This document shows, one piece after another, positions 1-27,822 of a stretch of DNA of 64,000 nt. The notes under the pieces were generated by a model. That model ran no database searches. It worked only from the letters and a program-made list of their open reading frames with translations, and was not told the DNA's origin. The DNA is from Acidobacteriota bacterium (GTDB lineage: Bacteria > Acidobacteriota > Thermoanaerobaculia > Multivoradales > JAHEKO01), in assembly GCA_030597375.1 (NCBI GenBank), contig JAUVRX010000001.1, positions 54,818 to 118,817 on the forward strand. The letters are read 5' to 3'. Positions within the stretch are counted from its first letter, which is position 1; each line of letters opens with the position of its first letter. A program made the translations under genes and the position numbers.

Positions 1-1189
1 TCCACCCGCAGCAGCTCGTTCTCCGACAACTGCGATAGCAACTCCGGCGGCATGAACTCCAGGTCGGCCGCCTGTCCAATCGCCGCCAGGACCCGGTCTG
101 CCTCCACCCTGAACTCACTGCCCGGAATCTGGATGGGTCTACGACGGCCAGAGGAGTCGGGTTCGCCCAGGCCTACCCGTACGCACTCCAGGGCCCCGAG
201 AGCCCCGCCCTCGACGATGAGACCGGTCGGGGCCACCAGAAACCTGAACGCGATGCCCTCCGACTCAGCGGCCCGAATCTCTTCTTCATCCGCCAACAGC
301 TCTTCGCGATAGCGTCGATAGAGGATGTCCACCGAGTCGGCTCCGAGACGCAGCGCCGAACGAGCCGCCTCGACCGCTGTCGCGCCACCGCCGATAACGA
401 CAACTCGACCCCTGACCGGCGACCGGTCGCCTTCGTTCACTCGACGCAAGAAGGCCAGGGCGTCCTCGATTCCCGCACAGGCCTCCGCGCCTGGGATCCT
501 CAGGGGGCGCCCGCGCTGAGCCCCGACGGCCAGCAACGTGGCAACGTACCCCTGCTCGAGCATCTCTTCGAATTGCAGATCCCGGCCGACACGACAGCCC
601 GTCTCGAACTCCAGTCCGACACCTGCGAGGTATTTGATCTCCGAATCCAGAACATCCCTGGGCAAGCGATACTCGGTAATGCCATAGCGCAACATTCCCC
701 CCGCCTCCGGCTCCGCTTCGAAGATCGTCACCGGATACCCGGCCCGACGCAGGTCGTAGGCGGCAGTCAGGCCGGCAGGGCCAGAACCTACGATTGCCAC
801 CCTGGCCTCCTTGTCGACCAGGGGCCAGGGTGCTGGTGGGGCCTCATCAATCGCCAGATCGGCCACGAACCGCTTCAAAGAGCGGATGGAGATGGGCTCG
901 TCGACCGTTCCTCGGCGGCAGACCGCTTCACAGGGGTGATGACAGATCCGGCCGCAGACACCGGGCAAGGGACAGTGCTGTCGAACGACTTGCAGGGCCT
1001 CGGCAAAACGACTCTCCGCAATCAGCGAGACATAGGCCTTGACGTTGATCCCTGCCGGGCAGGCCTGGGTACAGGGTGCCGGCTCGACCGGCAGAATCGG
1101 TAGCGGCTCAGCCTGCACGTCCGGAATCAACAGACTGCAACCCGCGATCTCCGGTGCACCGCCTCCGATCTCGCAGACAGGGGCGCTCA
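1..1189 (-). CDS. GltD/NfnB-like NAD(P)H-dependent Fe-S flavoprotein oxidoreductase (glutamate-synthase-small-subunit family); 5' partial in window, start codon at 1189
   Basis: Reverse-strand translation from ATG at 1187-1189 gives MSAPVCEIGGG...CTQACPAGINVKAYV...CPLPGVCGRICHHPCEAVCRRG (two Cys clusters), then VAIVGSGPAGLTAAYDL (FAD Rossmann) and VVVIGGGATAVEAA (NAD(P) Rossmann). The RBS gaggtgag sits upstream and the gene is translationally coupled downstream of korC. The frame is open to the window edge, so the C-terminus lies outside. The six-frame track does not list it as one ORF. Confidence 0.7.
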
Positions 1190-1780
1190 TGGGCTCACCT
1201 CCTCCAGAATCGGCCTGGCGACACCCACGGCTGGCTGACTCACTGACTTTCGGGCGTACTCCAGACCCTTGTCGAAGGCCTCGAGATTCAGGTCCTCCGT
1301 TCCGGCCGGCACCGACCCCCTGACCGCGGCGCGCATGGCCTCGTCCGGAACCAATTGTGTGACGCCGGTGAAGAAACCCACCATGACGATGTTCTGGACA
1401 ATTGTCTTTCCCAGGGATTCCGCGAGGCGGGTCGAAGGCACACCGAAGGCTCTCTGTCCCTCCACCGTGGTGGGGTGCACCAGATCCTGTTCGAAGACCA
1501 GGGTTCCATCCTTCTTGAGCTCCTGCCCGTACTTCTCGTAGCCCTCACCAGACATGACGACAAAGATGTCGGGACGCCGAAGGTAGGGGTAGAGGACCTC
1601 GCTTTCGGAGATCACGAGGGTGGCGCTGCAAGCCGAGCCCCTGGCTTCCGGACCAAAACTCTGGATCATGGTGGCGTGGCGCCCGGCATGGATGGCGCAG
1701 GCACAGCCGATGATATGCCCGGCGAGCACGACTCCCTGTCCACCGAAGCCGGTGATCCGGATCTCGACCTTACTGCTCAT
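1187..1780 (-). CDS. korC: 2-oxoacid:ferredoxin oxidoreductase gamma subunit
   Basis: ORF 1187..1813 trimmed to the internal Met of MSSKVEIRITGFGGQGVVLAG, preceded by the RBS gagggggg. The pyruvate/ketoisovalerate oxidoreductase gamma-domain signature GFGGQG is present. It overlaps the korB stop by 11 nt. Confidence 0.8.
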   Translation of the reverse strand: MSSKVEIRITGFGGQGVVLAGHIIGCACAIHAGRHATMIQSFGPEARGSACSATLVISESEVLYPYLRRPDIFVVMSGEGYEKYGQELKKDGTLVFEQDLVHPTTVEGQRAFGVPSTRLAESLGKTIVQNIVMVGFFTGVTQLVPDEAMRAAVRGSVPAGTEDLNLEAFDKGLEYARKSVSQPAVGVARPILEEVSP

Positions 1781-2672
1781 GGAGCATTCCCCCCTCTGGT
1801 GGCGTCGGAACATAACGGTCGCCCAGCTGGTCGCTGTAGTGGTTGTGCATCAGATCGAGGAACGTGGGCCGCTCCTCGTCCACGAACTTGCCGCATGTGA
1901 TCTCGCTCTGGAAGGAGATGTCCAGCTCACGGGTGTCGGCATCGTTCCGTATCACGGCCGTGTCGTGGTAGAAGCGCATGGCATCGAGCCCGGTCCCCAA
2001 CTTGTTCAGGCGGGCGTAGAGAGTCGGACAGGGCGCGATGACCTCGATGAACCGGAAGCCCCTCTTGTGAATGGCCTCCTCGATCGACCAGGTGAGGCGG
2101 CGAATGTGAAGGCAGGTCCAACGGGCCACATAGGAGGCACCACTCGAAGCGGCCAGATGGGGCAGGCTGAAGGGCGTTTCGAAATTTCCGTAGGGCATCG
2201 TCGACGACCGTGCTTGTTGAGGCGTTGTCGGAGCGTTCTGTCCCCCGGTCATGCCGTAGATGAAGTTGTTGATCAGGATGACCAGGAGGTCGATATTACG
2301 GCGTGCCGCGTGAATGAAGTGATTGCCGCCGATGCCCACCAGATCGCCATCGCCCGAGATCACCGTCACCAACAGCTCGGGCCGACCCAGTTTGAGTCCT
2401 GTGGCAAAGGGAAGAGCTCTCCCATGGGTGGTATGGAAGCCGTCCAGCTTGAGATAACCGGCTACCCGACCGGAGCAGCCGATGCCCGACACCACCGACA
2501 CCTTGTCGAGATCCACGCCGCTGCGCTCGAGGGCCGTGGCATAGCACTTGACCACCGTGCCGATTCCGCAGCTCGGACACCAGACGTGGGGAATGCGCTC
2601 CATTCGCAGGAGCGGAGCACTGGGATGCTCCAGTTCCTGGCTGGCTGTAGTCGATTTCGTTGCCACAGTCAT
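1770..2672 (-). CDS. korB: 2-oxoglutarate/2-oxoacid:ferredoxin oxidoreductase beta subunit (TPP-binding)
   Basis: 300 aa with WCPSCGIGT...GIGCSGR...GDGDLVGIGGNH (TPP-binding GDG) motifs typical of KorB/PorB. It sits between the alpha and gamma genes with overlapping stop/start codons. Confidence 0.9.
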   Translation of the reverse strand: MTVATKSTTASQELEHPSAPLLRMERIPHVWCPSCGIGTVVKCYATALERSGVDLDKVSVVSGIGCSGRVAGYLKLDGFHTTHGRALPFATGLKLGRPELLVTVISGDGDLVGIGGNHFIHAARRNIDLLVILINNFIYGMTGGQNAPTTPQQARSSTMPYGNFETPFSLPHLAASSGASYVARWTCLHIRRLTWSIEEAIHKRGFRFIEVIAPCPTLYARLNKLGTGLDAMRFYHDTAVIRNDADTRELDISFQSEITCGKFVDEERPTFLDLMHNHYSDQLGDRYVPTPPEGGMLHEQ

Positions 2673-3826
2673 GACGCCGCCTTGACGATGATTTCGGTGA
2701 TCGCGTCGGGGTCATGCACGGCTCCACCAGCGTGGTTTACCGGCCACGTCACGGCCTGTCCTGCCGCGACGCGCTCGACCTCCAGGGCGATCTGTCCAAG
2801 GTTGATCTCGGGCACCACGAAGGCTGCGACGGAACCGGCGAGCTCTCGGATGCGCTTCTCTGGAAACGGCCAGATCACCACCAGGCGTAGAAAGCCGACC
2901 CTGATGCCCCGCGAACGCGCCTCCTCGACAGCCAACCTCGCCACCCTGGCCGTAATGCCAAAGGACACCACGACGACCTCCGCATCGTCCATCCCCTCCT
3001 CTTCGAAGCGGACGATGCTATCGGCGTTATCCCGGATCTTCCCGACCAGACGGCGTACACTCGCATCGTGGCATTCGGCGTTCATCACCGGATAGCCGCG
3101 CTCGTCGTGGGTCAAGCCGGTGGTATGGAACCGGTAGCCGTCCCCGGCTCGGGCAAACTCCGGTATCTGGCCACCGTTGATCTGATAGGGACCGAACTCC
3201 TCTGGGCTCTTGTCGGTCAGTCGTCGGGGCTCGACCTCGATGGCGTCGGCCTCGGGTATCACCACCTTCTCGGTCATGTGACCGACGCACTCGTCCATCA
3301 GGAACATGACGGGGAGCCGATAGATCTCGGCCAGGTTGAAGGCGTCGATGGTGAGATCGAAGGCTTCTTGGGGCGATTGGGGGCACAAGGCGATGACCTC
3401 GTAGTCCCCATGAGAGCCCCAACGGGCCTGCATCACATCCCCCTGGCCCACCATCGTCGGCAGTCCGGTGGAGGGCCCACCCCTCTGCACGTTGACGACG
3501 ACACAGGGGGTCTCCATCATGGCGGCCAGGCCGATGTTCTCCATCATGAGGCTGAAGCCCGGACCGCTGGTCACGGTCATGGTCTTGGTGCCGGTCCAGG
3601 CTGCTCCGACCACGGCTGCCATGCTGGCCAGCTCGTCCTCCATCTGGATGAAGGTGCCACCCAAGGTTGGAAATCGCCTGGCGATGCGCTCCACGACCTC
3701 GGTGGATGGAGTGATGGGATAGCCGGCGACAAAGCGGCACCCCGCCGCCATGGCCCCTTCACCACAGGCGACGTCGCCGTCGAGATAGTGAGAGCCCGTG
3801 AGGACGCCTGCCGGATCGGCCTTCAT
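2669..3826 (-). CDS. korA: 2-oxoglutarate/2-oxoacid:ferredoxin oxidoreductase alpha subunit
   Basis: ORF 2669..4069 trimmed to MKADPAGVLTGSHYLDGDVACGEGAMAAGCRFVAGYPITPSTE (start 3826, RBS gggaggggg). The GYPITPSTE motif of the KorA/PorA N-terminal domain is present. The start overlaps the korD stop in an ATGA. Confidence 0.9.
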   Translation of the reverse strand: MKADPAGVLTGSHYLDGDVACGEGAMAAGCRFVAGYPITPSTEVVERIARRFPTLGGTFIQMEDELASMAAVVGAAWTGTKTMTVTSGPGFSLMMENIGLAAMMETPCVVVNVQRGGPSTGLPTMVGQGDVMQARWGSHGDYEVIALCPQSPQEAFDLTIDAFNLAEIYRLPVMFLMDECVGHMTEKVVIPEADAIEVEPRRLTDKSPEEFGPYQINGGQIPEFARAGDGYRFHTTGLTHDERGYPVMNAECHDASVRRLVGKIRDNADSIVRFEEEGMDDAEVVVVSFGITARVARLAVEEARSRGIRVGFLRLVVIWPFPEKRIRELAGSVAAFVVPEINLGQIALEVERVAAGQAVTWPVNHAGGAVHDPDAITEIIVKAAS

Positions 3827-4146
3827 GGCGCCCCCTCCCCGGCCCCAGTATTCGCCGGGGCTGAGACGGTGGCCAGATTGCCCGCGCGGTCGGCTGGATC
3901 GACGCAGAAGATCGCGAACTCGGGACAGATCATCTCGCACAGCCCGCAGTTCACGCAGGCTTGCGCGTCGACAATTTCTGGTGGGTGATAACCCTTGCGA
4001 TTGAATTCCCGGGACATCTCGAGGACCTGCCTGGGACAGTACTCGACGCAGAACGCACACCCCTTGCATCGGTCCGCGAGGATGTGCACATCTCCCCTGG
4101 GGGCTTCAACCTGACCCGCATCCAGGGGTTCTCGCCAATACCTCAT
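3823..4146 (-). CDS. korD: 2-oxoacid:ferredoxin oxidoreductase delta subunit (2x[4Fe-4S] ferredoxin)
   Basis: ORF 3823..4185 trimmed to MRYWREPLD (RBS gggagggcgg). Two CxxCxxCxxxCP ferredoxin motifs are present: CKGCAFCVEYCP and CVNCGLCEMICP. Confidence 0.8.
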   Translation of the reverse strand: MRYWREPLDAGQVEAPRGDVHILADRCKGCAFCVEYCPRQVLEMSREFNRKGYHPPEIVDAQACVNCGLCEMICPEFAIFCVDPADRAGNLATVSAPANTGAGEGAP

Positions 4147-6455: not shown

Positions 6456-6490
6456 GAGGGGGGCACGGATGTGCCCCCCTCTTTCTTTTC
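6456..6490. terminator. Rho-independent terminator (GC hairpin plus T-tract) shared by convergent gltA and citF
   Basis: The sequence gaggggggcac-ggat-gtgcccccctc is followed by tttcttttc. It lies between the gltA stop (6431) and the citF stop (6535). Confidence 0.5.
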
Positions 6491-6534: not shown

Positions 6535-8100
6535 CTACTGAGCTACCTGAAACACAGTATCGATGAGGGTGCCGTCGACCCATTTGATGACCGCGACCGG
6601 CTTGTCGGTCACCTGTGCCTTCTTCGGCTTACCACCACAGAACCTCTCCACTTCGGCCTTGATTTCCTCGATCGGGCGCAGCGGTAGATCCGAGCCTTTG
6701 AGCGCCTCCAGGAGGTCCTGCCGGGCAGGATTCACAGCGATCCCGCGCTCGGTGGCGACGACGTCGATGAGCTGCCCTGGGCCGGTCACCGTGGTGACCT
6801 CATCGACGATCACCGGAATCCGATCTCGGAATGAGGGCACCGCGAGGATGGTGCACCCTGCCGCCAGACAGTTCTGCCAGCCGCCGATACCGTGCAGAAG
6901 GCGACCATCGGAGTGGGTGTTGACGTTGGCGTTGAAGTTGACGTCGACCTCGGTCGCACCCAGGACCGCGACATCCACCATCGAGGCGAAGTTGCCTTTG
7001 CCATGAAAGTTGTAGGAGGTGAACGGCGAGGTGGGCACATGGCGCGGGTCCGTAGCAATCGAGTGAACCGCATCGAGGTCGAAGGTCTGGCCGTCCAGGA
7101 TGTACCCCGTCAGCCCCTCCTGGAGCATCTCCACGAGGTACTTTGTCGATCCCCCGCGCACGAAACTGGCTTTGACCCCGGCCTGACGCATCATCCGGCT
7201 GAGATAGGTGACGAATGCGAGCGCGATGCCTCCGGCACCGGCCTGGAAGGAGAAACCGAGACGCATGATTCCGCTGTCCCGCACGAAGCGCGCCACGAGC
7301 TCTGCGATTCGCTGTCGATCCGGGCTACGGGTAATGACGGTGGTACCTGAGACGATCTTCGAGGGATCGCCGATGGAGTCCACCTCGACGACGAAATCGA
7401 CGTTGTTGCCCTGGATCTGCCAGGGAATGCACGGGAAGTCCACCAGATTGTCCGTCACGACGATCACCCGGTCGGCATAGATCGAGTCCGCCAGGCCGAA
7501 ACCCAGAGAGCCGCAGGCCGTTGGACCGTGTGACCCATTGCAGTTCCCGAAGGCATCCGCTGAGGGCGCGGCGATCACAGCGATGTCGATCTCGACCTCT
7601 CCATCCTGAATCGCCTGCCATCGTCCGCCGTGAGATCGCAGCACTCCCATGCCTTGCATCCGGCCCTGGGAGCAGTAGTCCCCCAGTGGACCGTTCATGC
7701 TGCCTTCGATGTGGTGGACGACCCCTGCCTCCATCAGGTCGATGACCGGCTCCTGACAGGGAAACGAAGCGCTGGGGAACCACATCAGGTCCCTGACTCC
7801 CATCTTGCCCGCCGTCTGCAGCGCCTCGAGAGCTACCCGATCCCCGTTCCTCAGATGGTGATGGTTCGAGATCACCATGCCGTCCCGCAAACCGCATCGT
7901 TCGAGGGCTTCTTGCAGACTGCCTACCCTCTTGTCACCACTCGGCGGGTAGTCTTTGCAGCTCCTTACCGGCGGCGCCTGTTTGTGCCCGGTGGGGTCGG
8001 TCTGGGCCACACCCTTGTAGGGAGCCTGTTCCTGGCCGTTGACGACCGTTGGAACGGGCCTGCCAATCGCATTGGTTACGAGCTTTGCTCTCTCATTCAT
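6535..8100 (-). CDS. citF: citrate lyase alpha subunit (citrate CoA-transferase)
   Basis: 521 aa, the usual CitF length, with CitF-like blocks (GMVISNHHHLRNGD, RDLMWFPSASFPCQEP). The start overlaps the upstream CitD-CitE stop in an ATGA. Confidence 0.85.
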   Translation of the reverse strand: MNERAKLVTNAIGRPVPTVVNGQEQAPYKGVAQTDPTGHKQAPPVRSCKDYPPSGDKRVGSLQEALERCGLRDGMVISNHHHLRNGDRVALEALQTAGKMGVRDLMWFPSASFPCQEPVIDLMEAGVVHHIEGSMNGPLGDYCSQGRMQGMGVLRSHGGRWQAIQDGEVEIDIAVIAAPSADAFGNCNGSHGPTACGSLGFGLADSIYADRVIVVTDNLVDFPCIPWQIQGNNVDFVVEVDSIGDPSKIVSGTTVITRSPDRQRIAELVARFVRDSGIMRLGFSFQAGAGGIALAFVTYLSRMMRQAGVKASFVRGGSTKYLVEMLQEGLTGYILDGQTFDLDAVHSIATDPRHVPTSPFTSYNFHGKGNFASMVDVAVLGATEVDVNFNANVNTHSDGRLLHGIGGWQNCLAAGCTILAVPSFRDRIPVIVDEVTTVTGPGQLIDVVATERGIAVNPARQDLLEALKGSDLPLRPIEEIKAEVERFCGGKPKKAQVTDKPVAVIKWVDGTLIDTVFQVAQ

Positions 8101-9335
8101 GATTCGCCCCCCGTCGCTTCCCCGTCGGCCATCAAACCGAGTTGGTTGGCCTGTTTGACGAGACGCAGGGCCTGTTTGACCACGGGTGGGTCGATCATCT
8201 TCGACCCCAGGCTGACCACGCTCAAGCCCTTCGCCTCCGCCTCCTCGAAGGCGGCAACGATTCTCAGAGCCTTGTCGATCTCCGCACGGGTAGGCCGATA
8301 GGCCTCATGGATCACGGCGATCTGCCTCGGATGCAGGCAGCCCATCCCCTGGAAACCTAGTGCCCGGGAGCTCATACCCCAACGACTCAGCCCTTCCATG
8401 TCATCGACGTTGCCGAAAACCGAGTCGATGGCCTGCAAGCCCGATGCACGAGCCGCGTTGACGACCCGGGTTCGGGCATAGAAGGATTCCTCGCCCTCGG
8501 CCGATTTCGGCACTCCGAGATCAGCAGCGTAGTCCTCCAGACCCAGGGTCAGGGCCACAATCCTGGGACTCGCCCTGCCGATCTCGAAGGCGTTCTCGAT
8601 TCCCAGAGCGGATTCCAGGATTGGCATCAGCCACAGATCCCGTTCTATTTCCGACTCTGCCAGCGCCCTGGAGATCGCCTCGTCGACCTCGCGAACCTGC
8701 TCCGGCGTCTCCACCTTCGGAATGAGAATCAGGTCGGGCGCCTGGGGGACGATCTCCTCGAGGTCCTCGAGGCCCAGGGGGAGTTGGTTGATCCGGACCA
8801 TGCGTTCCGCACCCGCGAAATCGACGGCCCTCAGGGCATTGCGGACCACCAATCGCGCCGCATCCTTGTGGTCTGGCGACACCGAGTCCTCGAGATCCAG
8901 GATGATGGCATCGGGCCGATGCAGACCGGCGTTGATGAAGAACTTCGGTTCGTTCCCTGGCAGGTAGAGACGGGAACGCCGCAAGCGGCCCGCCGAGGTC
9001 GCACGTGGAGGCACGTCGATCGCCTCCGGCAACCACCGATTTTTCGGCGCCCATCCCGCCCGACGCACGGCCGCCTCCAGTCTCGCACCGATCACGAAAG
9101 GCAGAGCGCCTGCATCCTCGATGGTGACGATGGCACCGCGAACGCCCAGCTCGCTCAGTACCTCCTTGACCTGCTGCCGAATCGCGTCGCCGAAGTAGGC
9201 CTCCACCCGTGAGCTCAGCTTCACCTCGATCTGCTCTGCATCCAACCCTTCGATGGCAACAAACAGATCTGAGCGGACATCCTGACCCCGTCGACCTGCG
9301 ACACCCCTCCGATCTCTGTTCACGGCACCGCTCAT
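8097..9335 (-). CDS. citE: citrate lyase gamma (acyl-carrier) and beta (citryl-CoA lyase) fusion protein, CitD-CitE
   Basis: ORF 8097..9398 trimmed to MSGAVNRDRRGVAG (RBS gagggag). About the first 100 aa align with CitD (GVAG..RSDLFVAIEGLD...ALPFVIGARLEAAVRRAG). The remaining ~300 aa are CitE/HpcH-aldolase family (RSRLYLPGNEPKFF...LDLEDSV...). The start is less certain; Met13 and Met1 are alternatives. Confidence 0.8.
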   Translation of the reverse strand: MSGAVNRDRRGVAGRRGQDVRSDLFVAIEGLDAEQIEVKLSSRVEAYFGDAIRQQVKEVLSELGVRGAIVTIEDAGALPFVIGARLEAAVRRAGWAPKNRWLPEAIDVPPRATSAGRLRRSRLYLPGNEPKFFINAGLHRPDAIILDLEDSVSPDHKDAARLVVRNALRAVDFAGAERMVRINQLPLGLEDLEEIVPQAPDLILIPKVETPEQVREVDEAISRALAESEIERDLWLMPILESALGIENAFEIGRASPRIVALTLGLEDYAADLGVPKSAEGEESFYARTRVVNAARASGLQAIDSVFGNVDDMEGLSRWGMSSRALGFQGMGCLHPRQIAVIHEAYRPTRAEIDKALRIVAAFEEAEAKGLSVVSLGSKMIDPPVVKQALRLVKQANQLGLMADGEATGGES

Positions 9336-9430
9336 TCCGAACTCCCTCACCGCCCGATTCATACCCGGGGCAGCAGTCAATCGTTGCGTCGAAACCAATC
9401 CGCCTGGCCTTCTCCGGTCTTCGCCCCGAA

Positions 9431-10615
9431 TCAGAGAGTGGCGATCACCGCGTCGGTCAGTTGAATCGTCGAGGCGGCTCCCTTCGAGATTACGTCGGCG
9501 CCGCCCGGTAGCATCCTCATGTCGTAGGCCCGAACCTTCCCGGCCTTGACGACTGCGGCAACGGCATCGCGGATCTGTCCCGCCTTCGCCGTCTCTCCGA
9601 TGTGGTCCAGCAACATTGCCGACGCCAAGAACATGGCGGTCGGGTTGACGATGGGTGGGTCGAGCTCGAAGTACTTGGGGGCCGAGCCGTGCGTCGGCTC
9701 GAACACCGCCACTTCTTCACCGATGTTGCCGGAGGCCGCGAAGCCGAGACCGCCGACCAGTCCGGCGAAGCCGTCGGAGACGATGTCGCCGAACAGATTG
9801 CCGGCGACGATGACACCGTAGTTCTCCGGATTCTTGGTGAGCCACATCATCTGGGCATCGATGTTGGTCGACCAGAGCTCGATGTCGGGGTAGTCGGCAT
9901 GGATCTTCTTGGCCTCCTCCTCCATCATCCCCGAGGTCTCGCGCAGCACATTGGGCTTCTCACAGACCGTCACCGACTTGTAACCGTGCTTGCGGGCATA
10001 TTCGAATCCGGCCGTGATTATCCGGCGGCAGGCCCCGCGGGTGAAAATCCGAGTGCTGATCGCCAGGTCCCCGGGAGGCGTATCGGCGAAAGCCTTGAAC
10101 TTGGAATGCTGGTTCAGGGCCTGGAGGACCTGCTCAGGAGGGTCGGTCCACTCGACACCGGCGTACATGCCCTCGGTATTCTGGCGAAAAATGACCGCGT
10201 CGACGGTCGGTTCCATGAACCCTCCATCTGCGGTTCGTCGAATGAAGTTGAGCGGATTGCCCGGAAACGAACGGCACGGCCGAATACAGATGTCGAGTCC
10301 GAAACGCTGTCGCATGGAGACGATGGGGCTGAAATACACGTAGCCCTTGTCCTGCAGCTCCGGCTTCAACTCAGCTGCGGCTTGCGGCTTTGGCTTCGAG
10401 GTAATCGCTCCGAACAGACCCAGCTTGTGCTGTTCCAGCAGCTCAACCGTCCTGTCCGGCAGGGCGTTGCCCTCGTTGATCCAGAACTCCCATCCGATTT
10501 CCCCCTGCACATAGTCGGCATCGAATCCGACAGCATCCAGGACGCGCAGCGCCTCCGGTAGAACGATCTTTCCGATGCCGTCACCCGGCATCACAACCAC
10601 GGTTGGTTTGGCCAT
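9431..10615 (-). CDS. isocitrate/isopropylmalate dehydrogenase family beta-decarboxylating dehydrogenase (Icd/LeuB/HICDH-like)
   Basis: 394 aa. The N-terminal VVVMPGDGIGKIV and the motif NLFGDIVSDGFAGLVGGLGFAASGNIG are both diagnostic of this family. Substrate cannot be assigned from sequence alone. Confidence 0.8.
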   Translation of the reverse strand: MAKPTVVVMPGDGIGKIVLPEALRVLDAVGFDADYVQGEIGWEFWINEGNALPDRTVELLEQHKLGLFGAITSKPKPQAAAELKPELQDKGYVYFSPIVSMRQRFGLDICIRPCRSFPGNPLNFIRRTADGGFMEPTVDAVIFRQNTEGMYAGVEWTDPPEQVLQALNQHSKFKAFADTPPGDLAISTRIFTRGACRRIITAGFEYARKHGYKSVTVCEKPNVLRETSGMMEEEAKKIHADYPDIELWSTNIDAQMMWLTKNPENYGVIVAGNLFGDIVSDGFAGLVGGLGFAASGNIGEEVAVFEPTHGSAPKYFELDPPIVNPTAMFLASAMLLDHIGETAKAGQIRDAVAAVVKAGKVRAYDMRMLPGGADVISKGAASTIQLTDAVIATL

Positions 10616-10715: not shown

Positions 10716-12665
10716 TCATCCGATGCCCAGCCGCTGGCGGACCTGATTCTCTACCCCACCCGCCACGACCAGAGCCTGTGGCACGGACCCGAGGGCCGGA
10801 AAACGAAAACTCTCTCCACCGAGACGGATCGCGCCGGAAGAGAAATCGACCTCGAGATCCTGTCCCGGAATGATGGTCTTGGCCTCGCTGTCCACATCTT
10901 CCGCCGTCAGCAGGCGTACACTCTGGACCAGCTCGGGGCACTGGATGCAGGTGAAGCCGTTGTTGAACGCGTTGCGCAGGTAGGTTTGCGAATAGCTGGC
11001 CGCGATGACCATGGCGATCCCCTTGGCCTGCAGAGACGTGACGGCCTGTTCGCGACTCGATCCGGTACCGAAGTTCCAACTCCCTACCAGAATGTCGCCG
11101 GCTTGCGCGACTCCAGCGAACTCGGGATCGTAGTTCTCGAAAACGACCTCCGCCATCATTGCGGGCGTCATGTCATCTCGGTAGGTGTAATCCTTGCCAT
11201 AGATTCCATCGGTATTCAGGTTGTCCTGCGGCAGGAAGACCAGCCGTCCACGAATCCGCTCCGGAAAACCTGGCAGGATCTCGACCTTCTCCTCCGGTTC
11301 AACTGTCGAGGGAAGGGATCGCAGATCGCTCGCCAGCCGTCGATCCGCGACGTCCCCAGGCCCGCAAATGTAGCCCGCTACCGCAGAAGCGGCGACGACC
11401 GCCGGACTCGCCAGGTAGCACTCGGCTTCGCGTGAGCCCATGCGGCCCTTGAAGTTGCGGTTGGTGGCGGAGATTCCGACCTCCCCCGCCTCGAGCAGAC
11501 CCGTACCCAGCCCGATGCAGGGACCACAGCCTGGCGGCAGAGGTATGGCGCCGGCATCCAGGAGCGTCCTCCAGGAGCCGTTGTCCTCACAGTCGCGCTG
11601 CACCTCCTTGCTGGCCGCGGCGACATACAACTCGACGCCATCGGCAACGCGTCTGCCCTTCAAGACAGCCGCCGCCTTGGCGATGTCCTCGGAGCGGGAG
11701 TTGACGCACGACACCAGATAGGCTTTCTGGACCTCGATCCTCTTGCTTTCGATCTCCCCCAGCGCCGTCGCCACCTGGACCGTGTCGGGACCGGAAACGT
11801 GGGGTGAGACCGAGCTCAGATCCAGATCTATGCGGGCGGCATAGGCCGCGTCCTCATCGCCCCACAACGGGTCCTCTTTCCACCCGGCCAGGTCCTCCTC
11901 GGTAACCCGCTCGACACCGCGAGCCAACAGGATCTCCCGGCGGCGTCGCAGGAACTCCAGGGTCGTTTCATCGACAGGGAACCAGCCTACCAGCGCTCCC
12001 CATTCGGTCGTCATGTTGGAGATCGCCAACCGCTCATCCATGCTGAGAGTGGCGACACCAGGGCCGATGAACTCCACCGCGGCGTTCAATACCTCGCCCT
12101 GGTTGTAGAGACCGCAGAGGGCCAGGATCACGTCCTTGCCCGACGCCCCTTCCGGCAGCTCACCCGTCAGCACGACCTGCACGCTACGGGGGATCTGCCA
12201 CCAGAACGTACCTGTTGCCCAGATGGCTGCCGCATCCGTGCGCACCACCGGCGTACCCACCGCTCCGACCCCACCGTACATGTTGGAGTGGGAGTCGGAA
12301 GCCACGACAAAGGACCCAGGCACCACATATTGCTGCTCGACCATGACCTGGTGACCGATGCCCGTACCGGCAGGATAGAACTCCACACCCTGCTGGCTGG
12401 CGAACTCCTCGATCGAGCGATACTTGGTCAGGTTGGCCTCCGAGGTGTTCTGGATGTCGTGATCCAGGATGAAGACCGGCTGTTTCGGATCGAGGACCTT
12501 GGGAGCGCCGATGGCCTGGAACTTCTGCATCACCGGCGAGGTGTTGTCGTGGGTCATCACATGGTGGGGGCGAATCGAAAGGAAATCCCCGGCGCGCAAG
12601 GGTCTTCCGGACGGACCCTCGGCCATGTGGCTCTGGGCGATTTTCTCGACGACGGTTTGTCCCAT
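10716..12665 (-). CDS. aconitase-family hydro-lyase, fused large (LeuC-like) and small (LeuD-like) subunit
   Basis: ORF 10716..12752 trimmed to MGQTVVEKIAQSHM (RBS aggaga). The N-terminal ~420 aa has large-subunit motifs (HDNTSP, ASDSHSNMYGGVGAVG, SCVNSRSEDI, three Fe-S ligand-cysteine regions). The C-terminal ~200 aa is a swivel small subunit (GDILVGSWNFGTGSSREQA). This domain order is LeuCD-, homoaconitase- or AcnX-type rather than AcnA/B. Confidence 0.8.
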   Translation of the reverse strand: MGQTVVEKIAQSHMAEGPSGRPLRAGDFLSIRPHHVMTHDNTSPVMQKFQAIGAPKVLDPKQPVFILDHDIQNTSEANLTKYRSIEEFASQQGVEFYPAGTGIGHQVMVEQQYVVPGSFVVASDSHSNMYGGVGAVGTPVVRTDAAAIWATGTFWWQIPRSVQVVLTGELPEGASGKDVILALCGLYNQGEVLNAAVEFIGPGVATLSMDERLAISNMTTEWGALVGWFPVDETTLEFLRRRREILLARGVERVTEEDLAGWKEDPLWGDEDAAYAARIDLDLSSVSPHVSGPDTVQVATALGEIESKRIEVQKAYLVSCVNSRSEDIAKAAAVLKGRRVADGVELYVAAASKEVQRDCEDNGSWRTLLDAGAIPLPPGCGPCIGLGTGLLEAGEVGISATNRNFKGRMGSREAECYLASPAVVAASAVAGYICGPGDVADRRLASDLRSLPSTVEPEEKVEILPGFPERIRGRLVFLPQDNLNTDGIYGKDYTYRDDMTPAMMAEVVFENYDPEFAGVAQAGDILVGSWNFGTGSSREQAVTSLQAKGIAMVIAASYSQTYLRNAFNNGFTCIQCPELVQSVRLLTAEDVDSEAKTIIPGQDLEVDFSSGAIRLGGESFRFPALGSVPQALVVAGGVENQVRQRLGIG

Positions 12666-12688
12666 GGGAGGATCTCCTGTGCTTACCT

Positions 12689-14065
12689 CTAGCCTCGAGC
12701 CTGCAACAGCAGCATCAATTCGGTGATCGACTCGAGACTCTCGAGATTCCATACGGTCTCTTTGACACGTTTGCCCATTTCTAGAGTCAATACACCCTCC
12801 GCCAGGGCATCGAACTTCTCTTCGATCTCCCGATCGGTGAGCGGATTCCTCGGATCGCCCTTGGGATAGTCGATCTGCTTGGTGAACTCTCGACCATCCG
12901 TTGTCACCACGGTCACGATGACTCTCTGCAGCTCCGGAAACAGCGCCTCGATCTCGGGGTCGGCCACCACTTCGACCTTGTTCAGCTGAGCCCGAATGGT
13001 GGGATCCATGATCTTCTCGTCGGTGAACTGCAACGGGGTGACCTGACGCTCAGCGACAGCCGCCGCGATCACATAGGGCAGGCTGTGATCCGCAGTCTCC
13101 TTGGACCGGGGATCGTACTTCGAGGGGTCGGCCAGAATGTCGGCCGCCCGCGCCAGGGACCGGATGCGGACCTTCTCCACCTGCTCGGGCGCCAGATCGT
13201 TCTCCTTGATCAGGTCCAACGTGCAGGAGATGGGAGCGTGAGTCAACGCTTCGGTGGGAAAAGCCTTCATCCCACACTGCGTGATGCGAAATCCGTCTCC
13301 AAGACCTTCTTCGAGCAGCTCCAGCTTCCACTCCGGACCCATACAGTGCACCAGGCCCTCCTTGCCGTCGATGACGTGCTCCGGCCCGGTGTAACCACGC
13401 TCGGCCAGCAGGGCAGCCAGCACGCCACTCTGGGTGGCCATCGGATCCACGGTGTTCTTCATCATGGTCAGCTTGCCAGCGGTGACCGCACCGAAGGTCC
13501 CCATCCGCGAGCCCGAGATGCCGATGGCGTGCTGCATCTGCTCCCAGTCGAGATCGAGCAGTCTGGCAGCCACGATCGGGGCGACGAACGCCGTCAGGGT
13601 CGCGTGATGCCAGCCCCGTTCACGGATGCCCGGGAAAGCGGCCTCGCAGAGCCGCATCTCGAATTCGTGCCCGAGCACGATGCCCAGGATCAGGTCCCGA
13701 CCACCCTTGCCGCTCCTCTCACCGCAAGCCATGGCGGCCGGGATGATGTCTGACGGATGGGAGGGGTCCTGCTTCCAGTAGATGTCGTTGTAGTCCATCA
13801 CGCGCACCATCAGGGCGTTGAGCAGCGATGCCGAAACCGCATCCATCTGCCTACCGGTACCGATGACGGTGGCGGGTCCCGAACCACCGTTCTCTTCCAG
13901 GACCTCGATAGCGATTTTGACGTCGTATTGCTGATATCCCCCCAGAGCACACCCGAGGGAATCGAGCAGGTAGCGTTTCGCTTCACGAATCGCATCGTCG
14001 GTCAATTGGTCGTACTGCAACTCGGTGGCCCAACGTGAGATTCGGGCAGTTATCGTCTCAGTCAC
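12689..14065 (-). CDS. MmgE/PrpD-family protein (2-methylcitrate dehydratase / cis-aconitate decarboxylase family)
   Basis: ORF 12689..14134 trimmed to the GTG start VTETITARISRW (RBS aggagga). The full-length PrpD family fold has N- and C-terminal domains (LLDSLGCALGG; MACGERSGKGGRD). Confidence 0.8.
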   Translation of the reverse strand: MTETITARISRWATELQYDQLTDDAIREAKRYLLDSLGCALGGYQQYDVKIAIEVLEENGGSGPATVIGTGRQMDAVSASLLNALMVRVMDYNDIYWKQDPSHPSDIIPAAMACGERSGKGGRDLILGIVLGHEFEMRLCEAAFPGIRERGWHHATLTAFVAPIVAARLLDLDWEQMQHAIGISGSRMGTFGAVTAGKLTMMKNTVDPMATQSGVLAALLAERGYTGPEHVIDGKEGLVHCMGPEWKLELLEEGLGDGFRITQCGMKAFPTEALTHAPISCTLDLIKENDLAPEQVEKVRIRSLARAADILADPSKYDPRSKETADHSLPYVIAAAVAERQVTPLQFTDEKIMDPTIRAQLNKVEVVADPEIEALFPELQRVIVTVVTTDGREFTKQIDYPKGDPRNPLTDREIEEKFDALAEGVLTLEMGKRVKETVWNLESLESITELMLLLQARG

Positions 14066-14168
14066 TTTCAAGTCCTCCGTCCTGGATTCGAGGAGATCGT
14101 TCCCTCGTGGTCGTCCTGGGCTCGGCTCAGACACCCGATCATAGGCGAGGGGCAGCCGAGGTCCCTTT

Positions 14169-14708
14169 TCATTTGAGGTTCTTGAAGGGCTCGTAGCTCA
14201 TGAAGTCGGCGTGGTGAACGATGTAGGCCTCGGTGCTGCGCTTCACCAGATCGCCCTCGGCCGCATGGGTGGCGATGATGTGACAGACGGAGTCCGGCAC
14301 TCCGCACTCCATGGCCACGTGCACCCCGGTGAAGGGGTGACGGAGCTTCTTGCCTCGGTCGCTCTGCACCGCTTTGCCATCGACCACCTCGTACTCGAGG
14401 AGCTTGCCGACGTCGGCCAGGATGGCACCGGCGATCACCACATCCGTATCGATGGGAAGAGCTCGACCCAGAAACTCGTCCATCGCCTCCGCCGATCTCC
14501 GAGCGATGTGCACTACGCACCGCTTGTGCTCCATGAAGGTCGCGGGGCAGTCTGGGATCAGAAGAGTGAACGGGATCTCTTCGAGGTCGCCGGGCTCCAG
14601 CGGGCTGTTCTCCAAAGCGCGGACCCAGGTCTCACGAACACTTGCGCGCAGTTCCTCGTCACCGATCCAAGCCAGCTCCGGCCACAACTTGTCTACCGCC
14701 TCACTCAT
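14169..14708 (-). CDS. HD-domain metal-dependent phosphohydrolase
   Basis: 179 aa with His-Asp motifs (HIARRS...H..D; IIATHAAEGD). It is divergent from the Lon-like gene. Confidence 0.7.
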   Translation of the reverse strand: MSEAVDKLWPELAWIGDEELRASVRETWVRALENSPLEPGDLEEIPFTLLIPDCPATFMEHKRCVVHIARRSAEAMDEFLGRALPIDTDVVIAGAILADVGKLLEYEVVDGKAVQSDRGKKLRHPFTGVHVAMECGVPDSVCHIIATHAAEGDLVKRSTEAYIVHHADFMSYEPFKNLK

Positions 14709-14967
14709 GCGATTATCCTCGATTCCGGTGGATTAGAAAGCCATGACTCTGTGACCACACGGGTAACAATATTGACCCTCCTGCCCGATGTCCAGTCCTC
14801 TTTCAAAAATCCTCGACATCTCCTCTCAGACCTGTCGTCACATCCGACGTAGGGTGCCCATTGAATGCCTGTCCAGCGCGCTGCGCGTTGCGTATACTGG
14901 AGTCGAAGCGATAGATTCTTCGCGGCACGCGGAGCGCTCGAGCGGCAACAGACGAGGGGGATGGATC

Positions 14968-25587: not shown

Positions 25588-27822
25588 TCACCTCTCGACT
25601 CGGGAGTGGCTGCAGTAGAGCTCCAGGAGTCGGATCGCCCGATCGGCAGAGCGAAAGACCGGGATCCCTCCTTCCTGGAGCACCCTCGCCATGGTGTCGT
25701 AGGCACAACCAGCATCGACCACCGCCACCCAGGGCTTGCAGGTCTGGCGCCATACCTGCGCCAACCTGGACGCGATGGAGCTCGGGCTCTCCACATTCTC
25801 ATCATGTTCACTCGACGCAGGAAGGGTGTTCAGGGCGCCGGTAAACGGAACACAACCAACCACCCCGACATCGACCCCCGGATCCTGAAGTACGAGTCGA
25901 ACCGCTGCCTCATACTGGGCATCCTGGACAATTGGAGTCAGATCCAGGGGGTTTCGGACGTCCACGACCTGGTGAATCCGGCTCGCCTGGAAGATCTCCG
26001 AAAGCGCCTTACGGGTCTCAGGCGAGAACGCAGCCGGTTGCAGGCCTCTCAGGCCGTCCCAGATGGCAACACACTCGTAGCCGGCGTTGGAGACCGCCCC
26101 GACCCGATTACCCTTTGCAGATCTGCCCTCGAATCTCGAGAACAGCAGGAGCAGGTCCTCGAAGTCCTCCAGAGTCTCCGCCACCAGGATTCCCGCTCCA
26201 CGGGCGAGAGCCCGGGTAATTCGATAACTGCCGGCCATGGCCGCGGTGTGACTCGCCGCAGCGTCGACGCCTGATCGGCTGCGACCGGCACGGTAGAGGA
26301 TTACCGTTCGTCCGCTGGCCGTGATTCGACGAGCTGCCTCGAGAAATCTCCAACCATCGAGATCCCTGAACCCTTCAACGTACACCGCGAACAGAGAGAC
26401 CCCCTCGTCCGCCTGCAGATAGGTCAGATAATCGCCCAGGGTCAGGTCGATCTGGTTGCCGATGGAGATCGCGTACCGAATGGGAAGCTTTGGGAGCTTG
26501 CTCGTCTTGGAGGCGAGGAAGGCTCCGCTCTGGGCCAGAAGCGCCACGTTGCCCTCGTCGCACCCGACCGGCGGCATCTTGTACTGCCGCAGAAAGAAGG
26601 TGTCGTATCGCCCCGGCTGGGAGCGAATTCCGAGGCAATTCCCTCCGTTCACAAGGGGTCCTCCCCATTCAGACGACCGCGTTTCAGAAAGAGACCGGCG
26701 AATCTCGTCGCTGATGTGCGCGGAGCCTGGTTTTTCATCGAGTCCGCCTGGGATCAGGATGATCGTCTCCGCCTTGCGATGATCGATCGTCGCTTGAATG
26801 ACCTCGGGAACCCGATCGGCGGCGACGCTGACAATCAGGAGATCCACCGACCCCGGCAGCGAGGCAATGTCCGCGTAGCAGCGACACCCTTCGATGGACT
26901 CGAGCCTCGGCTTGACCACCGACACGTTCTCAGGGTCGAAGCCTCCTCTCAGCAGGTTCTTGAGAATGAGCCGGCCCGGATTCAGCCGCTCCGCCACCCC
27001 AATGAGGGCCACGGACCTGGGTCGCAAGAGTCGATCGAGTTTCTCGATAGGCCGGACTGGTGACAGCCGCGGCCGGGAAGCCGCGCGCCTGGCCAAGACA
27101 TCCAGCGCAACTAATGAGCCACTGTGGACGACGAGAGGATTGATCTCGACTTCATCCAGGAGCTCCGGCAAGAGCAGGGGGGCGGCCGCAACGAATCGGC
27201 GAAGCACTTCCACGATCTGCTGTATGGCAAGACGGGCAGGCTTCCCCCGCTGAGTCTGCGCCATGAGATCGGTCACCAGGAGACCCGAGATCTCCTGTTC
27301 GATCGAATCGCGCCCTTCCCGCTCGGGTACCAAGATGGCCAGGGCCGCCTCTTCGTGCAAGGCCGCTGTCACTTTCTCAGCCTGGACTCCGCCGATGCCA
27401 AAGGTAATGACGGCACCAAACTCCCTGTCCCAGCGCATGCTCAGCAGCGCCTCGCTACCTGGAGAAGGGTCGTATTCGACGAACTCCTGAACCATCAGGC
27501 CACGGAGATCGAGATCGCTCATGGACCGTGCCATTTCCTGCGCAGCGATCCTTGCCTGCTGTCGGGTCTTCGGGACGATGCGCACCCCCCCGACCTCGCT
27601 CTTGTGCAGCAGATCGCTGGCGATGGCCTTCAGCACCACCCTTTCTCCTGGCAGGCTGGCCAGAAACTCCTCGCTGATCTCGTCTGGGCTGGCGATCACC
27701 TCGAAGCGAGGAACCGAAATCCCCATGGCCCGCAGGAGCTCGAAGCCCTCCGGCTCGAGCAGCTGATGCCGCCCCTCCTCGATGGCGTGTTTCAGATGCG
27801 ACTCGAAATCGTCGATTCTCAT
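25588..27822 (-). CDS. ADP-forming acyl-CoA synthetase (NDP-forming acetate--CoA ligase family), fused beta-alpha arrangement
   Basis: 744 aa. An N-terminal ATP-grasp domain (RVVLKAIASDLLHKSEVGGVRIV) is followed by a CoA-binding Rossmann (SVALIGVAERLNPGRLILKNL) and a ligase-CoA/flavodoxin-like domain. There is no GNAT domain, so it is not Pat. Confidence 0.8.
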   Translation of the reverse strand: MRIDDFESHLKHAIEEGRHQLLEPEGFELLRAMGISVPRFEVIASPDEISEEFLASLPGERVVLKAIASDLLHKSEVGGVRIVPKTRQQARIAAQEMARSMSDLDLRGLMVQEFVEYDPSPGSEALLSMRWDREFGAVITFGIGGVQAEKVTAALHEEAALAILVPEREGRDSIEQEISGLLVTDLMAQTQRGKPARLAIQQIVEVLRRFVAAAPLLLPELLDEVEINPLVVHSGSLVALDVLARRAASRPRLSPVRPIEKLDRLLRPRSVALIGVAERLNPGRLILKNLLRGGFDPENVSVVKPRLESIEGCRCYADIASLPGSVDLLIVSVAADRVPEVIQATIDHRKAETIILIPGGLDEKPGSAHISDEIRRSLSETRSSEWGGPLVNGGNCLGIRSQPGRYDTFFLRQYKMPPVGCDEGNVALLAQSGAFLASKTSKLPKLPIRYAISIGNQIDLTLGDYLTYLQADEGVSLFAVYVEGFRDLDGWRFLEAARRITASGRTVILYRAGRSRSGVDAAASHTAAMAGSYRITRALARGAGILVAETLEDFEDLLLLFSRFEGRSAKGNRVGAVSNAGYECVAIWDGLRGLQPAAFSPETRKALSEIFQASRIHQVVDVRNPLDLTPIVQDAQYEAAVRLVLQDPGVDVGVVGCVPFTGALNTLPASSEHDENVESPSSIASRLAQVWRQTCKPWVAVVDAGCAYDTMARVLQEGGIPVFRSADRAIRLLELYCSHSRVER

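Follow-up and report, generated by a model that had tools for sequence, protein, structure and literature searches.

A fused carrier and lyase subunit of citrate lyase type in a conserved six-gene operon without linked priming genes

A 64,000-nucleotide stretch of DNA from an Acidobacteriota bacterium (GenBank assembly GCA_030597375.1, contig JAUVRX010000001.1, positions 54,818 to 118,817), hereafter the window, encodes on its minus strand a protein, CitDE, in which the acyl-carrier (gamma) and lyase (beta) subunits of a citrate lyase are joined. Judged from sequence, it is fairly probable that CitDE supplies the fused gamma and beta subunits of a CitDEF-type, ATP-independent, carrier-dependent lyase that is co-translated with the alpha subunit CitF and acts on citrate or homocitrate. 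The fusion itself is common and already known, whereas its conserved six-gene context and the family-wide lack of linked priming genes appear undescribed. The fusion gene, the parts of its product and the adjoining citF are:

8097..9335, minus strand: CitD-CitE (gamma-beta) fusion gene, 412 amino acids (aa), an open reading frame (ORF) with a ribosome-binding site and matches to PF06857 and PF03328
9060..9308, minus strand: carrier (CitD-like) domain, residues ~10-92, from PF06857, PRK13253 and a modelled four-strand, two-helix fold
9270..9272, minus strand: TCA codon of Ser22, candidate cofactor attachment site, in the loop A13-G14-R-R-G17-x-x-V-R21-S22-D23
8985..9059, minus strand: linker, residues ~93-117 (25 residues), with no modelled secondary structure and a predicted local distance difference test score (pLDDT) of ~88-92
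8136..8984, minus strand: CitE-type C-C lyase domain, a TIM barrel, residues ~118-400, from PF03328, TIGR01588 and Foldseek
6535..8100, minus strand: citF, alpha subunit (acyl-carrier:tricarboxylate transferase), from PF04223 (expectation value (E) 6e-128) and TIGR01584

The fusion ORF has an alternative TTG start at 9398, giving 433 aa, while the ATG at 9335 gives 412 aa. Since a ribosome-binding site (GAGGGAG) lies 7 nt upstream of ATG 9335 and 412 aa is the length of nearly all homologues, the coordinates 8097-9335 given in an earlier note, made from the letters of this DNA, are right. Residue numbers from the Pfam and NCBIfam searches refer to the 433-aa, TTG-started ORF and convert to 412-aa numbering by subtracting 21. 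On that longer numbering, residues 43-114 matched PF06857, the CitD/MdcC carrier family (E 1e-19, 71 bits, cut-off 25.1), and residues 141-357 matched PF03328, the HpcH/HpaI family that includes CitE, over its full model length (E 6e-53). The protein passed PRK13253, the NCBIfam model for the citrate lyase gamma subunit (74.1 versus a cut-off of 65), and was about one bit short of the citD equivalog TIGR01608 (62.3 versus 63.5). Both the CitD-like N terminus and the complete CitE/HpcH-family domain described in the earlier note are thereby borne out. The citE equivalog TIGR01588 was matched with E 9e-83 and 277.7 bits, under its cut-off of 443.4, and tblastn alignments placed the identities to E. 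coli CitD, CitE and CitF at 41, 38 and 38%.

An AlphaFold2 model built with 44 homologues as input folded the fusion confidently into a single body (mean pLDDT 92.7, predicted template modelling score 0.90). For the lyase domain, the nearest solved structures in Foldseek were malyl-CoA lyase, CLYBL and M. tuberculosis CitE (E 1e-27 to 1e-21; CoA, coenzyme A), and the DLED motif and other lyase-domain residues are invariant. Across 186 homologues, mean column conservation was 0.76 in the lyase domain, 0.64 in the carrier and lowest, 0.50, in the linker. The well-conserved carrier is therefore under purifying selection and is no relic; it is present as a domain of the fusion, with no separate gamma subunit.

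To place the gene in context, a scan of one genome per GTDB species gave 225 relatives, from which 80 loci were fetched with up to 10-kb flanks. The alpha-subunit gene citF adjoins the fusion in 73 of them. In the window, the stop codon of the fusion overlaps the citF start codon in an ATGA, and citF is translationally coupled to the fusion gene. With a full-length CitF next to CitDE, a citrate-lyase-type enzyme is complete in its three functional parts. CitF scored 476.3 bits against the citF equivalog TIGR01584 (cut-off 501.45) and, with TIGR01588 also below its cut-off, the enzyme is no close orthologue of the citrate lyases that have been characterised.

Conservation within the carrier is concentrated in the loop around Ser22. 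Among the 186 aligned sequences, A13 was retained in 178, G14 in 186, G17 in 183, R21 in 186, S22 in 184 and D23 in 186, with Arg, His or Lys at position 15 in 174. The family motif reads G-x-x-[V/I]-R-S-D, as against AGTLES(S/G)D in canonical CitD proteins, and most of the 499 matches to a carrier-domain search of 50%-identity representatives share it. In an alignment to canonical CitDs, G17 corresponds to the Gly of AGTLES(S/G)D and R21 occupies the column of the E. coli and K. pneumoniae attachment residue Ser14. The Ser22 column is one further on, with Gly15 as the E. coli residue and Ser15 as that of E. faecium and others. The serine of VRSDLF that had been put forward in the earlier note as the attachment residue is Ser22, and alignment upheld its conservation (184 of 186); its equivalence to E. 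coli Ser14 did not stand, as it lies one residue later, opposite Gly15. In some short standalone CitD-like proteins the sole serine likewise sits at -1 (AGTDDDSD), and a few lack one altogether, so the position of the functional serine seems variable within the family. Ser22 is thus a credible attachment site, predicted from alignment, although not strictly homologous to Ser14.

The canonical citrate lyase mechanism and its requirement for CitG, CitX and CitC have been described (PMC10798043). No match to CitC, CitX, CitG, MdcB or MdcG was found within the 64-kb window by tblastn (E<=0.01), with CitC, CitX and CitG queries from E. coli and Enterococcus faecium and MdcG and MdcB queries from Bradyrhizobium. 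Pfam scans of about 49 large window ORFs likewise returned no CitG, CitX, CitC (PF08218), MdcG or phosphopantetheinyl transferase domain, so that the absence of citC, citX and citG from the window, as first noted from the letters, is confirmed. The same five genes were missing from all 80 related loci with their 10-kb flanks, 1.28 Mb in total. The CitG query was sensitive enough to reach the distant MdcB genes of Bradyrhizobium and homologues on Streptomyces plasmids. In three reference systems, E. coli citCDEFXG, E. faecium citCDEFXG and Bradyrhizobium mdcACDEGB, the accessory genes were co-operonic with the carrier gene.

The fusion is widespread. A search of 5.8 billion proteins matched at least 8,000 sequence clusters; all 120 of the 120 matches listed had the PF06857 plus PF03328 architecture and nearly all were ~400-420 aa long. 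The loci came from Acidobacteriota (Thermoanaerobaculia, Sulfotelmatobacter, Polarisedimenticolia and Thermoanaerobaculum aquaticum), many Gemmatimonadota, Ignavibacteriota (Ignavibacterium album and Melioribacteraceae), Planctomycetota/Phycisphaerae, Eisenbacteria, Krumholzibacteriia, and metagenome-assembled genomes (MAGs) labelled Bacteroidota. The window itself belongs with the Thermoanaerobaculia, its leucyl-tRNA synthetase (LeuRS) being 87% identical to those of several MAGs of that class. In the genome paper of Liu et al. 2012, I. album IALB_1147 is described as a CitE-CitD fusion beside CitF (IALB_1146), the pair being taken to suggest citrate fermentation or an unconventional reductive tricarboxylic acid (TCA) cycle (PMC3362086). 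A literature search yielded no paper on the six-gene operon or on an accessory-free citrate lyase, and met the fusion only in the I. album paper. The variant citrate lyase architecture suggested in the earlier note is thus partly supported, by the gamma-beta fusion, the conserved serine and the lack of linked genes, now extended to 80 loci, but the fusion is no novelty, as it has at least 8,000 homologue clusters and was described in 2012.

That note also gave an incomplete account of the locus, having passed over the neighbouring citF (6535..8100) and the operon of HD-domain, PrpD-family, Lys4-type and dehydrogenase genes to which it belongs. On the minus strand the order is HD-domain gene (14708-14169), MmgE/PrpD-family gene (14134-12689), aconitase-family gene (12752-10716), dehydrogenase gene (10615-9431), citDE (9335-8097) and citF (8100-6535). 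The four upstream genes are:

14169..14708, minus strand: first operon gene, for an HD-domain metalloprotein of 179 aa, with homologues assigned to PF01966 or HDIG-named
12689..14134, minus strand: MmgE/PrpD-family protein (PF03972 and PF19305)
10716..12752, minus strand: Lys4-type (homo)aconitase with fused large and small domains (TIGR00139)
9431..10615, minus strand: beta-decarboxylating dehydrogenase of isocitrate/homoisocitrate type, Iso_dh family (PF00180, E 6e-72)

Searched by tblastn, 73 of the 80 loci had a linked citF and 60 a linked aconitase-family gene; for the dehydrogenase, PrpD-family and HD-domain genes the counts were 59, 54 and 47. Many absences coincide with contig ends, and all six genes were present in 25 of the 34 loci with full 10-kb flanks. 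Median identities of the locus genes to the window proteins were 59-75%. All-against-all ORF clustering of the 80 loci revealed no seventh conserved family, the next families being lineage-specific and confined to at most 11 loci. The window operon likely ends at a GC-rich hairpin that separates citF from the convergent citrate synthase gene. A promoter match lies upstream of its first gene, but such matches are no commoner in the region than in shuffled controls and are weak evidence. Rfam (at gathering thresholds) and a transfer RNA scan of the whole window found nothing, hence no riboswitch hints at the substrate. The two putative boundary elements are:

6456..6481, no strand assigned: GC-rich hairpin, its stem of 11 bp including 9 G-C pairs, with a T-run after it on the plus strand
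14766..14794, minus strand: sigma-70-like promoter match 5' of the HD-domain gene, 9 of 12 consensus positions

Sequence models assign the partner enzymes to families more firmly than to substrates. The aconitase-family protein, whose ORF runs into the upstream gene and so leaves the start codon in doubt, scored 742.8 bits against TIGR00139, the fungal-type homoaconitase model (cut-off 529.9), an assignment made by model score. In the PDB it matched the large subunit of M. jannaschii homoaconitase best, with isopropylmalate isomerase and mitochondrial aconitase behind. With the TIGR00139 cut-off so well exceeded, the six-gene operon is where the bacterial proteins with so strong a match to the fungal Lys4-type model sit. 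The best NCBIfam models for the dehydrogenase were the methanogen AksF homoisocitrate dehydrogenases at ~250 bits, far under their cut-offs of 500-540, with isocitrate and isopropylmalate dehydrogenase models scoring nearly as well; its best PDB matches, Thermus homoisocitrate dehydrogenase and an NAD-dependent isocitrate dehydrogenase, tie. For the PrpD-family protein, IDS epimerase and IRG1/cis-aconitate decarboxylases gave stronger matches (E 7e-39 to 1e-25) than did PrpD itself (E 1e-16). The HD-domain protein itself had no Pfam match and no PDB sequence match. Its AlphaFold2 model (pLDDT 87) retrieved generic HD folds in Foldseek (YhaM, Ddi2 and PgpH), and a search matched at least 8,000 clusters, the best 120 at 79-92% identity. 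The HD dyad reads Ala-Asp in place of His-Asp, with many other His, Cys and Asp residues invariant. E. coli AcpH is an HD-family enzyme acting on a carrier-protein phosphodiester; profile comparison of the HD-domain protein with it found no similarity.

By analogy with citrate lyase, a thiol cofactor bound to the N-terminal domain of CitDE would hold an acetyl thioester, CitF would exchange the acetyl for the acyl group of a 2-hydroxy-tricarboxylate with release of acetate, and the CitE domain would split the bound acyl group into a 2-oxoacid and the regenerated acetyl thioester. The PrpD-family and Lys4-type enzymes would interconvert the tricarboxylate and its iso-form, and the dehydrogenase would link the iso-form to a 2-oxoacid and CO2. 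In the citrate version, 2-oxoglutarate would be reversibly converted to citrate, which would yield oxaloacetate and acetate, and in the homocitrate version 2-oxoadipate and homocitrate would be interconverted and the latter cleaved to 2-oxoglutarate and acetate.

Several observations weigh against a citrate lyase-type enzyme of this kind. Neither CitE nor CitF reaches its equivalog cut-off, and Ser22 is out of register with E. coli Ser14. Some loci have the fusion but no citF or HD-domain gene within 10 kb; in four of them (L029, L051, L058 and L066, from some Planctomycetota and unclassified MAGs) CitDE stands alone, with neither citF nor any other operon gene within that distance. The genes citC, citX and citG may sit elsewhere in the genome, as the searches covered the window and loci with 10-kb flanks. 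The dehydrogenase matches isocitrate and homoisocitrate enzymes equally and would suit either substrate, and the literature search returned no experiment on any member of the CitDE-fusion family.

How the carrier would be primed bears on whether the fusion is more than a rearrangement. The module passes from phylum to phylum as one self-contained set of genes, and we infer from this that priming is provided by something within the module or by a universal function. The HD-domain protein is one candidate and a housekeeping phosphopantetheinyl transferase another; as a third, the enzyme may use CoA or acetyl-CoA directly. In the plainest, if rather unlikely, case the enzyme would be an ordinary citrate lyase with CitX, CitG and CitC encoded elsewhere in the chromosome and 2'-(5''-phosphoribosyl)-3'-dephospho-CoA on Ser22. 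The carrier does pass the PF06857 and PRK13253 thresholds, its serine is invariant, and in some standalone CitD-like proteins the -1 position likewise holds the single serine. In Geobacter sulfurreducens, moreover, citG and citX lie away from any lyase genes (PMC2996986), so priming genes can be unlinked, and the searches here covered loci only. Against this, none of the accessory genes occurs within 10 kb in any of the 80 loci, which span several phyla; all of them share one operon in the E. coli, E. faecium and Bradyrhizobium reference systems; and an operon spreading without three accessory genes that are essential to it would not work in any recipient lacking them. From comparative sequence evidence we lean instead, tentatively, towards an accessory-free variant, on account of the self-contained module across phyla, the lack of co-travelling priming genes and the systematically different loop. 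Such an enzyme would carry another cofactor, either transferase-added phosphopantetheine or a CoA-derived group placed with the help of the HD-domain protein, or would bind CoA or acetyl-CoA non-covalently in the basic loop; in the non-covalent version acetyl-CoA would charge the enzyme and CitC would not be needed. The loop is distinctive, with invariant G14, G17, R21, S22 and D23 and mostly Arg, His or Lys at position 15, and the nearest solved structures are CitE-fold enzymes that use free CoA thioesters. The isolated alpha and beta subunits of citrate lyase reportedly accept acetyl-CoA and citryl-CoA, as found by Dimroth and Eggerer in the 1970s. The HD-domain protein, strongly conserved and with no obvious part in tricarboxylate chemistry, is the obvious candidate for a carrier-related role, yet it has no profile similarity to AcpH and is missing near CitDE-CitF in three loci (L024, L026 and L049). 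Also counting against an accessory-free variant, its alternative cofactor is conjectural, Pfam scans of the window revealed no phosphopantetheinyl transferase, and an invariant serine is what covalent attachment would predict.

Citrate and homocitrate appear about equally likely as the substrate, and the operon context of PrpD-family, Lys4-type and isocitrate/homoisocitrate dehydrogenase-type enzymes raises doubt whether citrate is the substrate at all. It is possible that the operon encodes a homocitrate lyase, a PrpD-family dehydratase, a Lys4-type hydratase and a homoisocitrate dehydrogenase, together interconverting 2-oxoadipate with 2-oxoglutarate and acetate; this could serve catabolism, as the first half of the aminoadipate pathway run backwards, or form 2-oxoadipate without acetyl-CoA. 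We know of no homocitrate lyase that has been described. Such a pathway would accord with the aconitase-family protein above the TIGR00139 cut-off and its best solved relative, a homoaconitase, with AksF as the best NCBIfam model of the dehydrogenase and the tied Thermus homoisocitrate dehydrogenase, and with citE and citF scores below the citrate lyase equivalog cut-offs; a dedicated isomerase and dehydrogenase would be redundant if the substrates were TCA-cycle intermediates. The methylcitrate cycle offers a precedent for a split between a PrpD-type dehydratase and an aconitase-type hydratase, which the PrpD-family partner would mirror. Fungal Lys4 and Thermus homoaconitase reportedly catalyse the hydration half-reaction only, so that a separate dehydratase is needed, and a PrpD-family/Lys4-type split would fit this reported inability of Lys4-type enzymes to dehydrate homocitrate. 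On the other side, the dehydrogenase is equally near to NAD-dependent isocitrate dehydrogenase, with all models below cut-off; no homocitrate synthase or aminoadipate-pathway gene is linked, by Pfam scans of the window and clustering of the loci; and a citrate synthase gene converges on the operon in the window and in two close relatives. A role in an unconventional reductive TCA cycle or a reductive 2-oxoglutarate branch seems unlikely. There, 2-oxoglutarate and CO2 would give isocitrate, then citrate, then oxaloacetate and acetate, and an ADP-forming synthetase would activate the acetate. The I. album authors proposed such a cycle (PMC3362086), and something similar has been suggested for Geobacter bemidjiensis (PMC2996986). 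The window carries a 2-oxoacid:ferredoxin oxidoreductase set and citrate synthase, and an ADP-forming acyl-CoA synthetase follows citF in three loci. However, most carriers of the operon are heterotrophic soil and sediment lineages, the oxidoreductase and citrate synthase are each linked in only 2 of 80 loci, and the hydratase resembles homoaconitase more than aconitase.

Cleavage is the more likely physiological direction. An acetate-releasing lyase is estimated to lie far towards cleavage at substrate concentrations of mM or less when the 2-oxoacid is scarce oxaloacetate; operation in the synthetic direction, pulled by oxidative decarboxylation with abundant 2-oxoglutarate, is conceivable. 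I. album lacks branched-chain amino acid and diaminopimelate-lysine biosynthesis, has auxotrophies for many amino acids and needs yeast extract (PMC3362086). Its retention of the operon despite these auxotrophies fits a catabolic or central role better than amino-acid biosynthesis.

Three other assignments were considered and rejected. Leucine or isopropylmalate chemistry is contradicted by the lack of branched-chain amino acid biosynthesis in I. album and by the polar specificity loop of the hydratase, YTYR, which we presume can be read by the YLRT/YLVM rule of methanogens. The methylcitrate cycle does not suit a beta-decarboxylating dehydrogenase, 2-methylisocitrate being a tertiary alcohol and hence no substrate for such an enzyme. 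For itaconate degradation, the RipC model scored far under citE and no itaconyl-CoA hydratase is linked.

Taken at its boldest, the six-gene module would be a self-sufficient, undescribed pathway of central carbon metabolism, in which a homocitrate (or citrate) lyase free of CitC, CitX and CitG, primed or charged in a new way through the HD-domain protein or loop-bound CoA or acetyl-CoA, converts 2-oxoadipate or 2-oxoglutarate reversibly to the next shorter 2-oxoacid and acetate without acetyl-CoA or ATP. We regard this combination as improbable.

Some lineages carry further genes at the operon. In Ignavibacteria loci (e.g. L064, L065, L073 and L081), the order is dehydrogenase, CstA-like transporter, HD-domain protein, hydratase, PrpD-family protein, CitDE and CitF, and in 11 loci a hybrid sensor histidine kinase lies 5' of the Ignavibacteria operon; the transporter and kinase suggest inducible use of an imported carboxylate or peptide. 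A pair of thiolase and archaeal-type HMG-CoA synthase-like genes, so identified by sequence, lies near the operon in six Gemmatimonadota loci (L009, L018, L022, L036, L037 and L069), and 3' of citF in L018 and L022. Orthologues of a window-encoded ADP-forming acyl-CoA synthetase (47-49% identity) lie directly 3' of citF in the Gemmatimonadota loci L026, L033 and L042; this weakly supported associate might activate acetate or substitute for CitC.

The wider window has a 2-oxoacid:ferredoxin oxidoreductase set at 3-4069 on the minus strand, ~1 kb from the citrate synthase gene; a GltD-like Fer4_20/Pyr_redox_2 protein, truncated at the window start, is part of the set. A LonB/LonC-like AAA protease gene (14788-17394, plus strand) diverges from the operon across ~80 bp of intergenic DNA. 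Farther away are a WS/DGAT (wax-ester synthase/diacylglycerol acyltransferase) gene (20979-22382, minus strand), adjoining a gene for a DUF445 membrane protein, and a gene for a 743-aa protein (29433-31664, minus strand) with an N-terminal membrane segment and repeated HYDIN/ASH/Cep192-type Ig-like domains. The subunit and synthetase genes are:

2669-4069, minus strand: 2-oxoacid:ferredoxin oxidoreductase, alpha subunit
1770-2672, minus strand: the same enzyme, thiamine pyrophosphate-binding beta subunit
1187-1813, minus strand: the same enzyme, gamma subunit
25588..27822, minus strand: ADP-forming acyl-CoA synthetase (ATP-grasp_5, CoA_binding_2, Succ_CoA_lig)

The operon and its lyase family are widespread in phyla common in soils and sediments, where annotations call the pair "citrate lyase" and metabolic reconstructions infer citrate fermentation or an unconventional reductive TCA cycle from it. 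If CitG, CitX and CitC are indeed not needed, the family would show that a CoA-type carrier can be equipped, or bypassed, in a new way, and if the substrate is homocitrate, a new route would join the C6, C5 and C4 2-oxoacids and acetate. With either result, the carbon flow inferred for abundant, poorly cultured groups would have to be revised; should the accessory genes sit elsewhere, the finding would shrink to a common gene fusion.

Among known systems, the closest is citrate lyase CitDEF of Klebsiella pneumoniae, E. coli and lactic acid bacteria (EC 4.1.3.6), which shares the carrier, the CitE lyase, the CitF transferase and the D-E-F order, and in both a serine directly precedes the conserved loop Asp. 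Unlike CitDEF, the present family has one gamma-beta polypeptide, a serine one residue later and no linked citC, citX or citG, and its operon holds PrpD-family, aconitase-family, dehydrogenase and HD-domain genes but no citrate transporter or oxaloacetate decarboxylase. To our knowledge, citramalate lyase of glutamate-fermenting clostridia (EC 4.1.3.22) is the only other three-part carrier-dependent lyase; it converts citramalate to acetate and pyruvate with separate subunits and the same prosthetic group as citrate lyase. The malonate decarboxylase carrier MdcC belongs to the same Pfam family, PF06857, but the match of the fusion to TIGR03130 is weaker (E 1e-3), MdcB and MdcG are co-operonic with MdcC, and the partner enzymes differ from CitDE-CitF. 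Lyases acting on free acyl-CoA (malyl-CoA lyase, CLYBL, M. tuberculosis CitE and RipC/Ccl) share the TIM barrel and metal-site motifs, yet unlike the fusion have no carrier domain or CitF partner; the fusion scored 159 bits on the RipC model and 69 bits on the malyl-CoA lyase model versus 278 bits on citE. The front half of the alpha-aminoadipate pathway (homocitrate synthase, Lys4/LysTU and homoisocitrate dehydrogenase) has in common with the operon a Lys4-type hydratase and a related dehydrogenase, but the operon has no homocitrate synthase or linked lysine genes and carries the lyase and PrpD-family protein instead. I. album IALB_1147/IALB_1146 is of the same family and architecture as CitDE-CitF, and the I. 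album MAG loci L064 and L081, at 52-53% identity, hold all six genes. The Ignavibacteria operon differs from that of the window in gene order and in its inserted CstA-like transporter. The I. album paper treats the pair as a plain ATP-independent citrate lyase and, where it deals with the two genes, makes no mention of the missing priming genes or the linked operon genes (PMC3362086).

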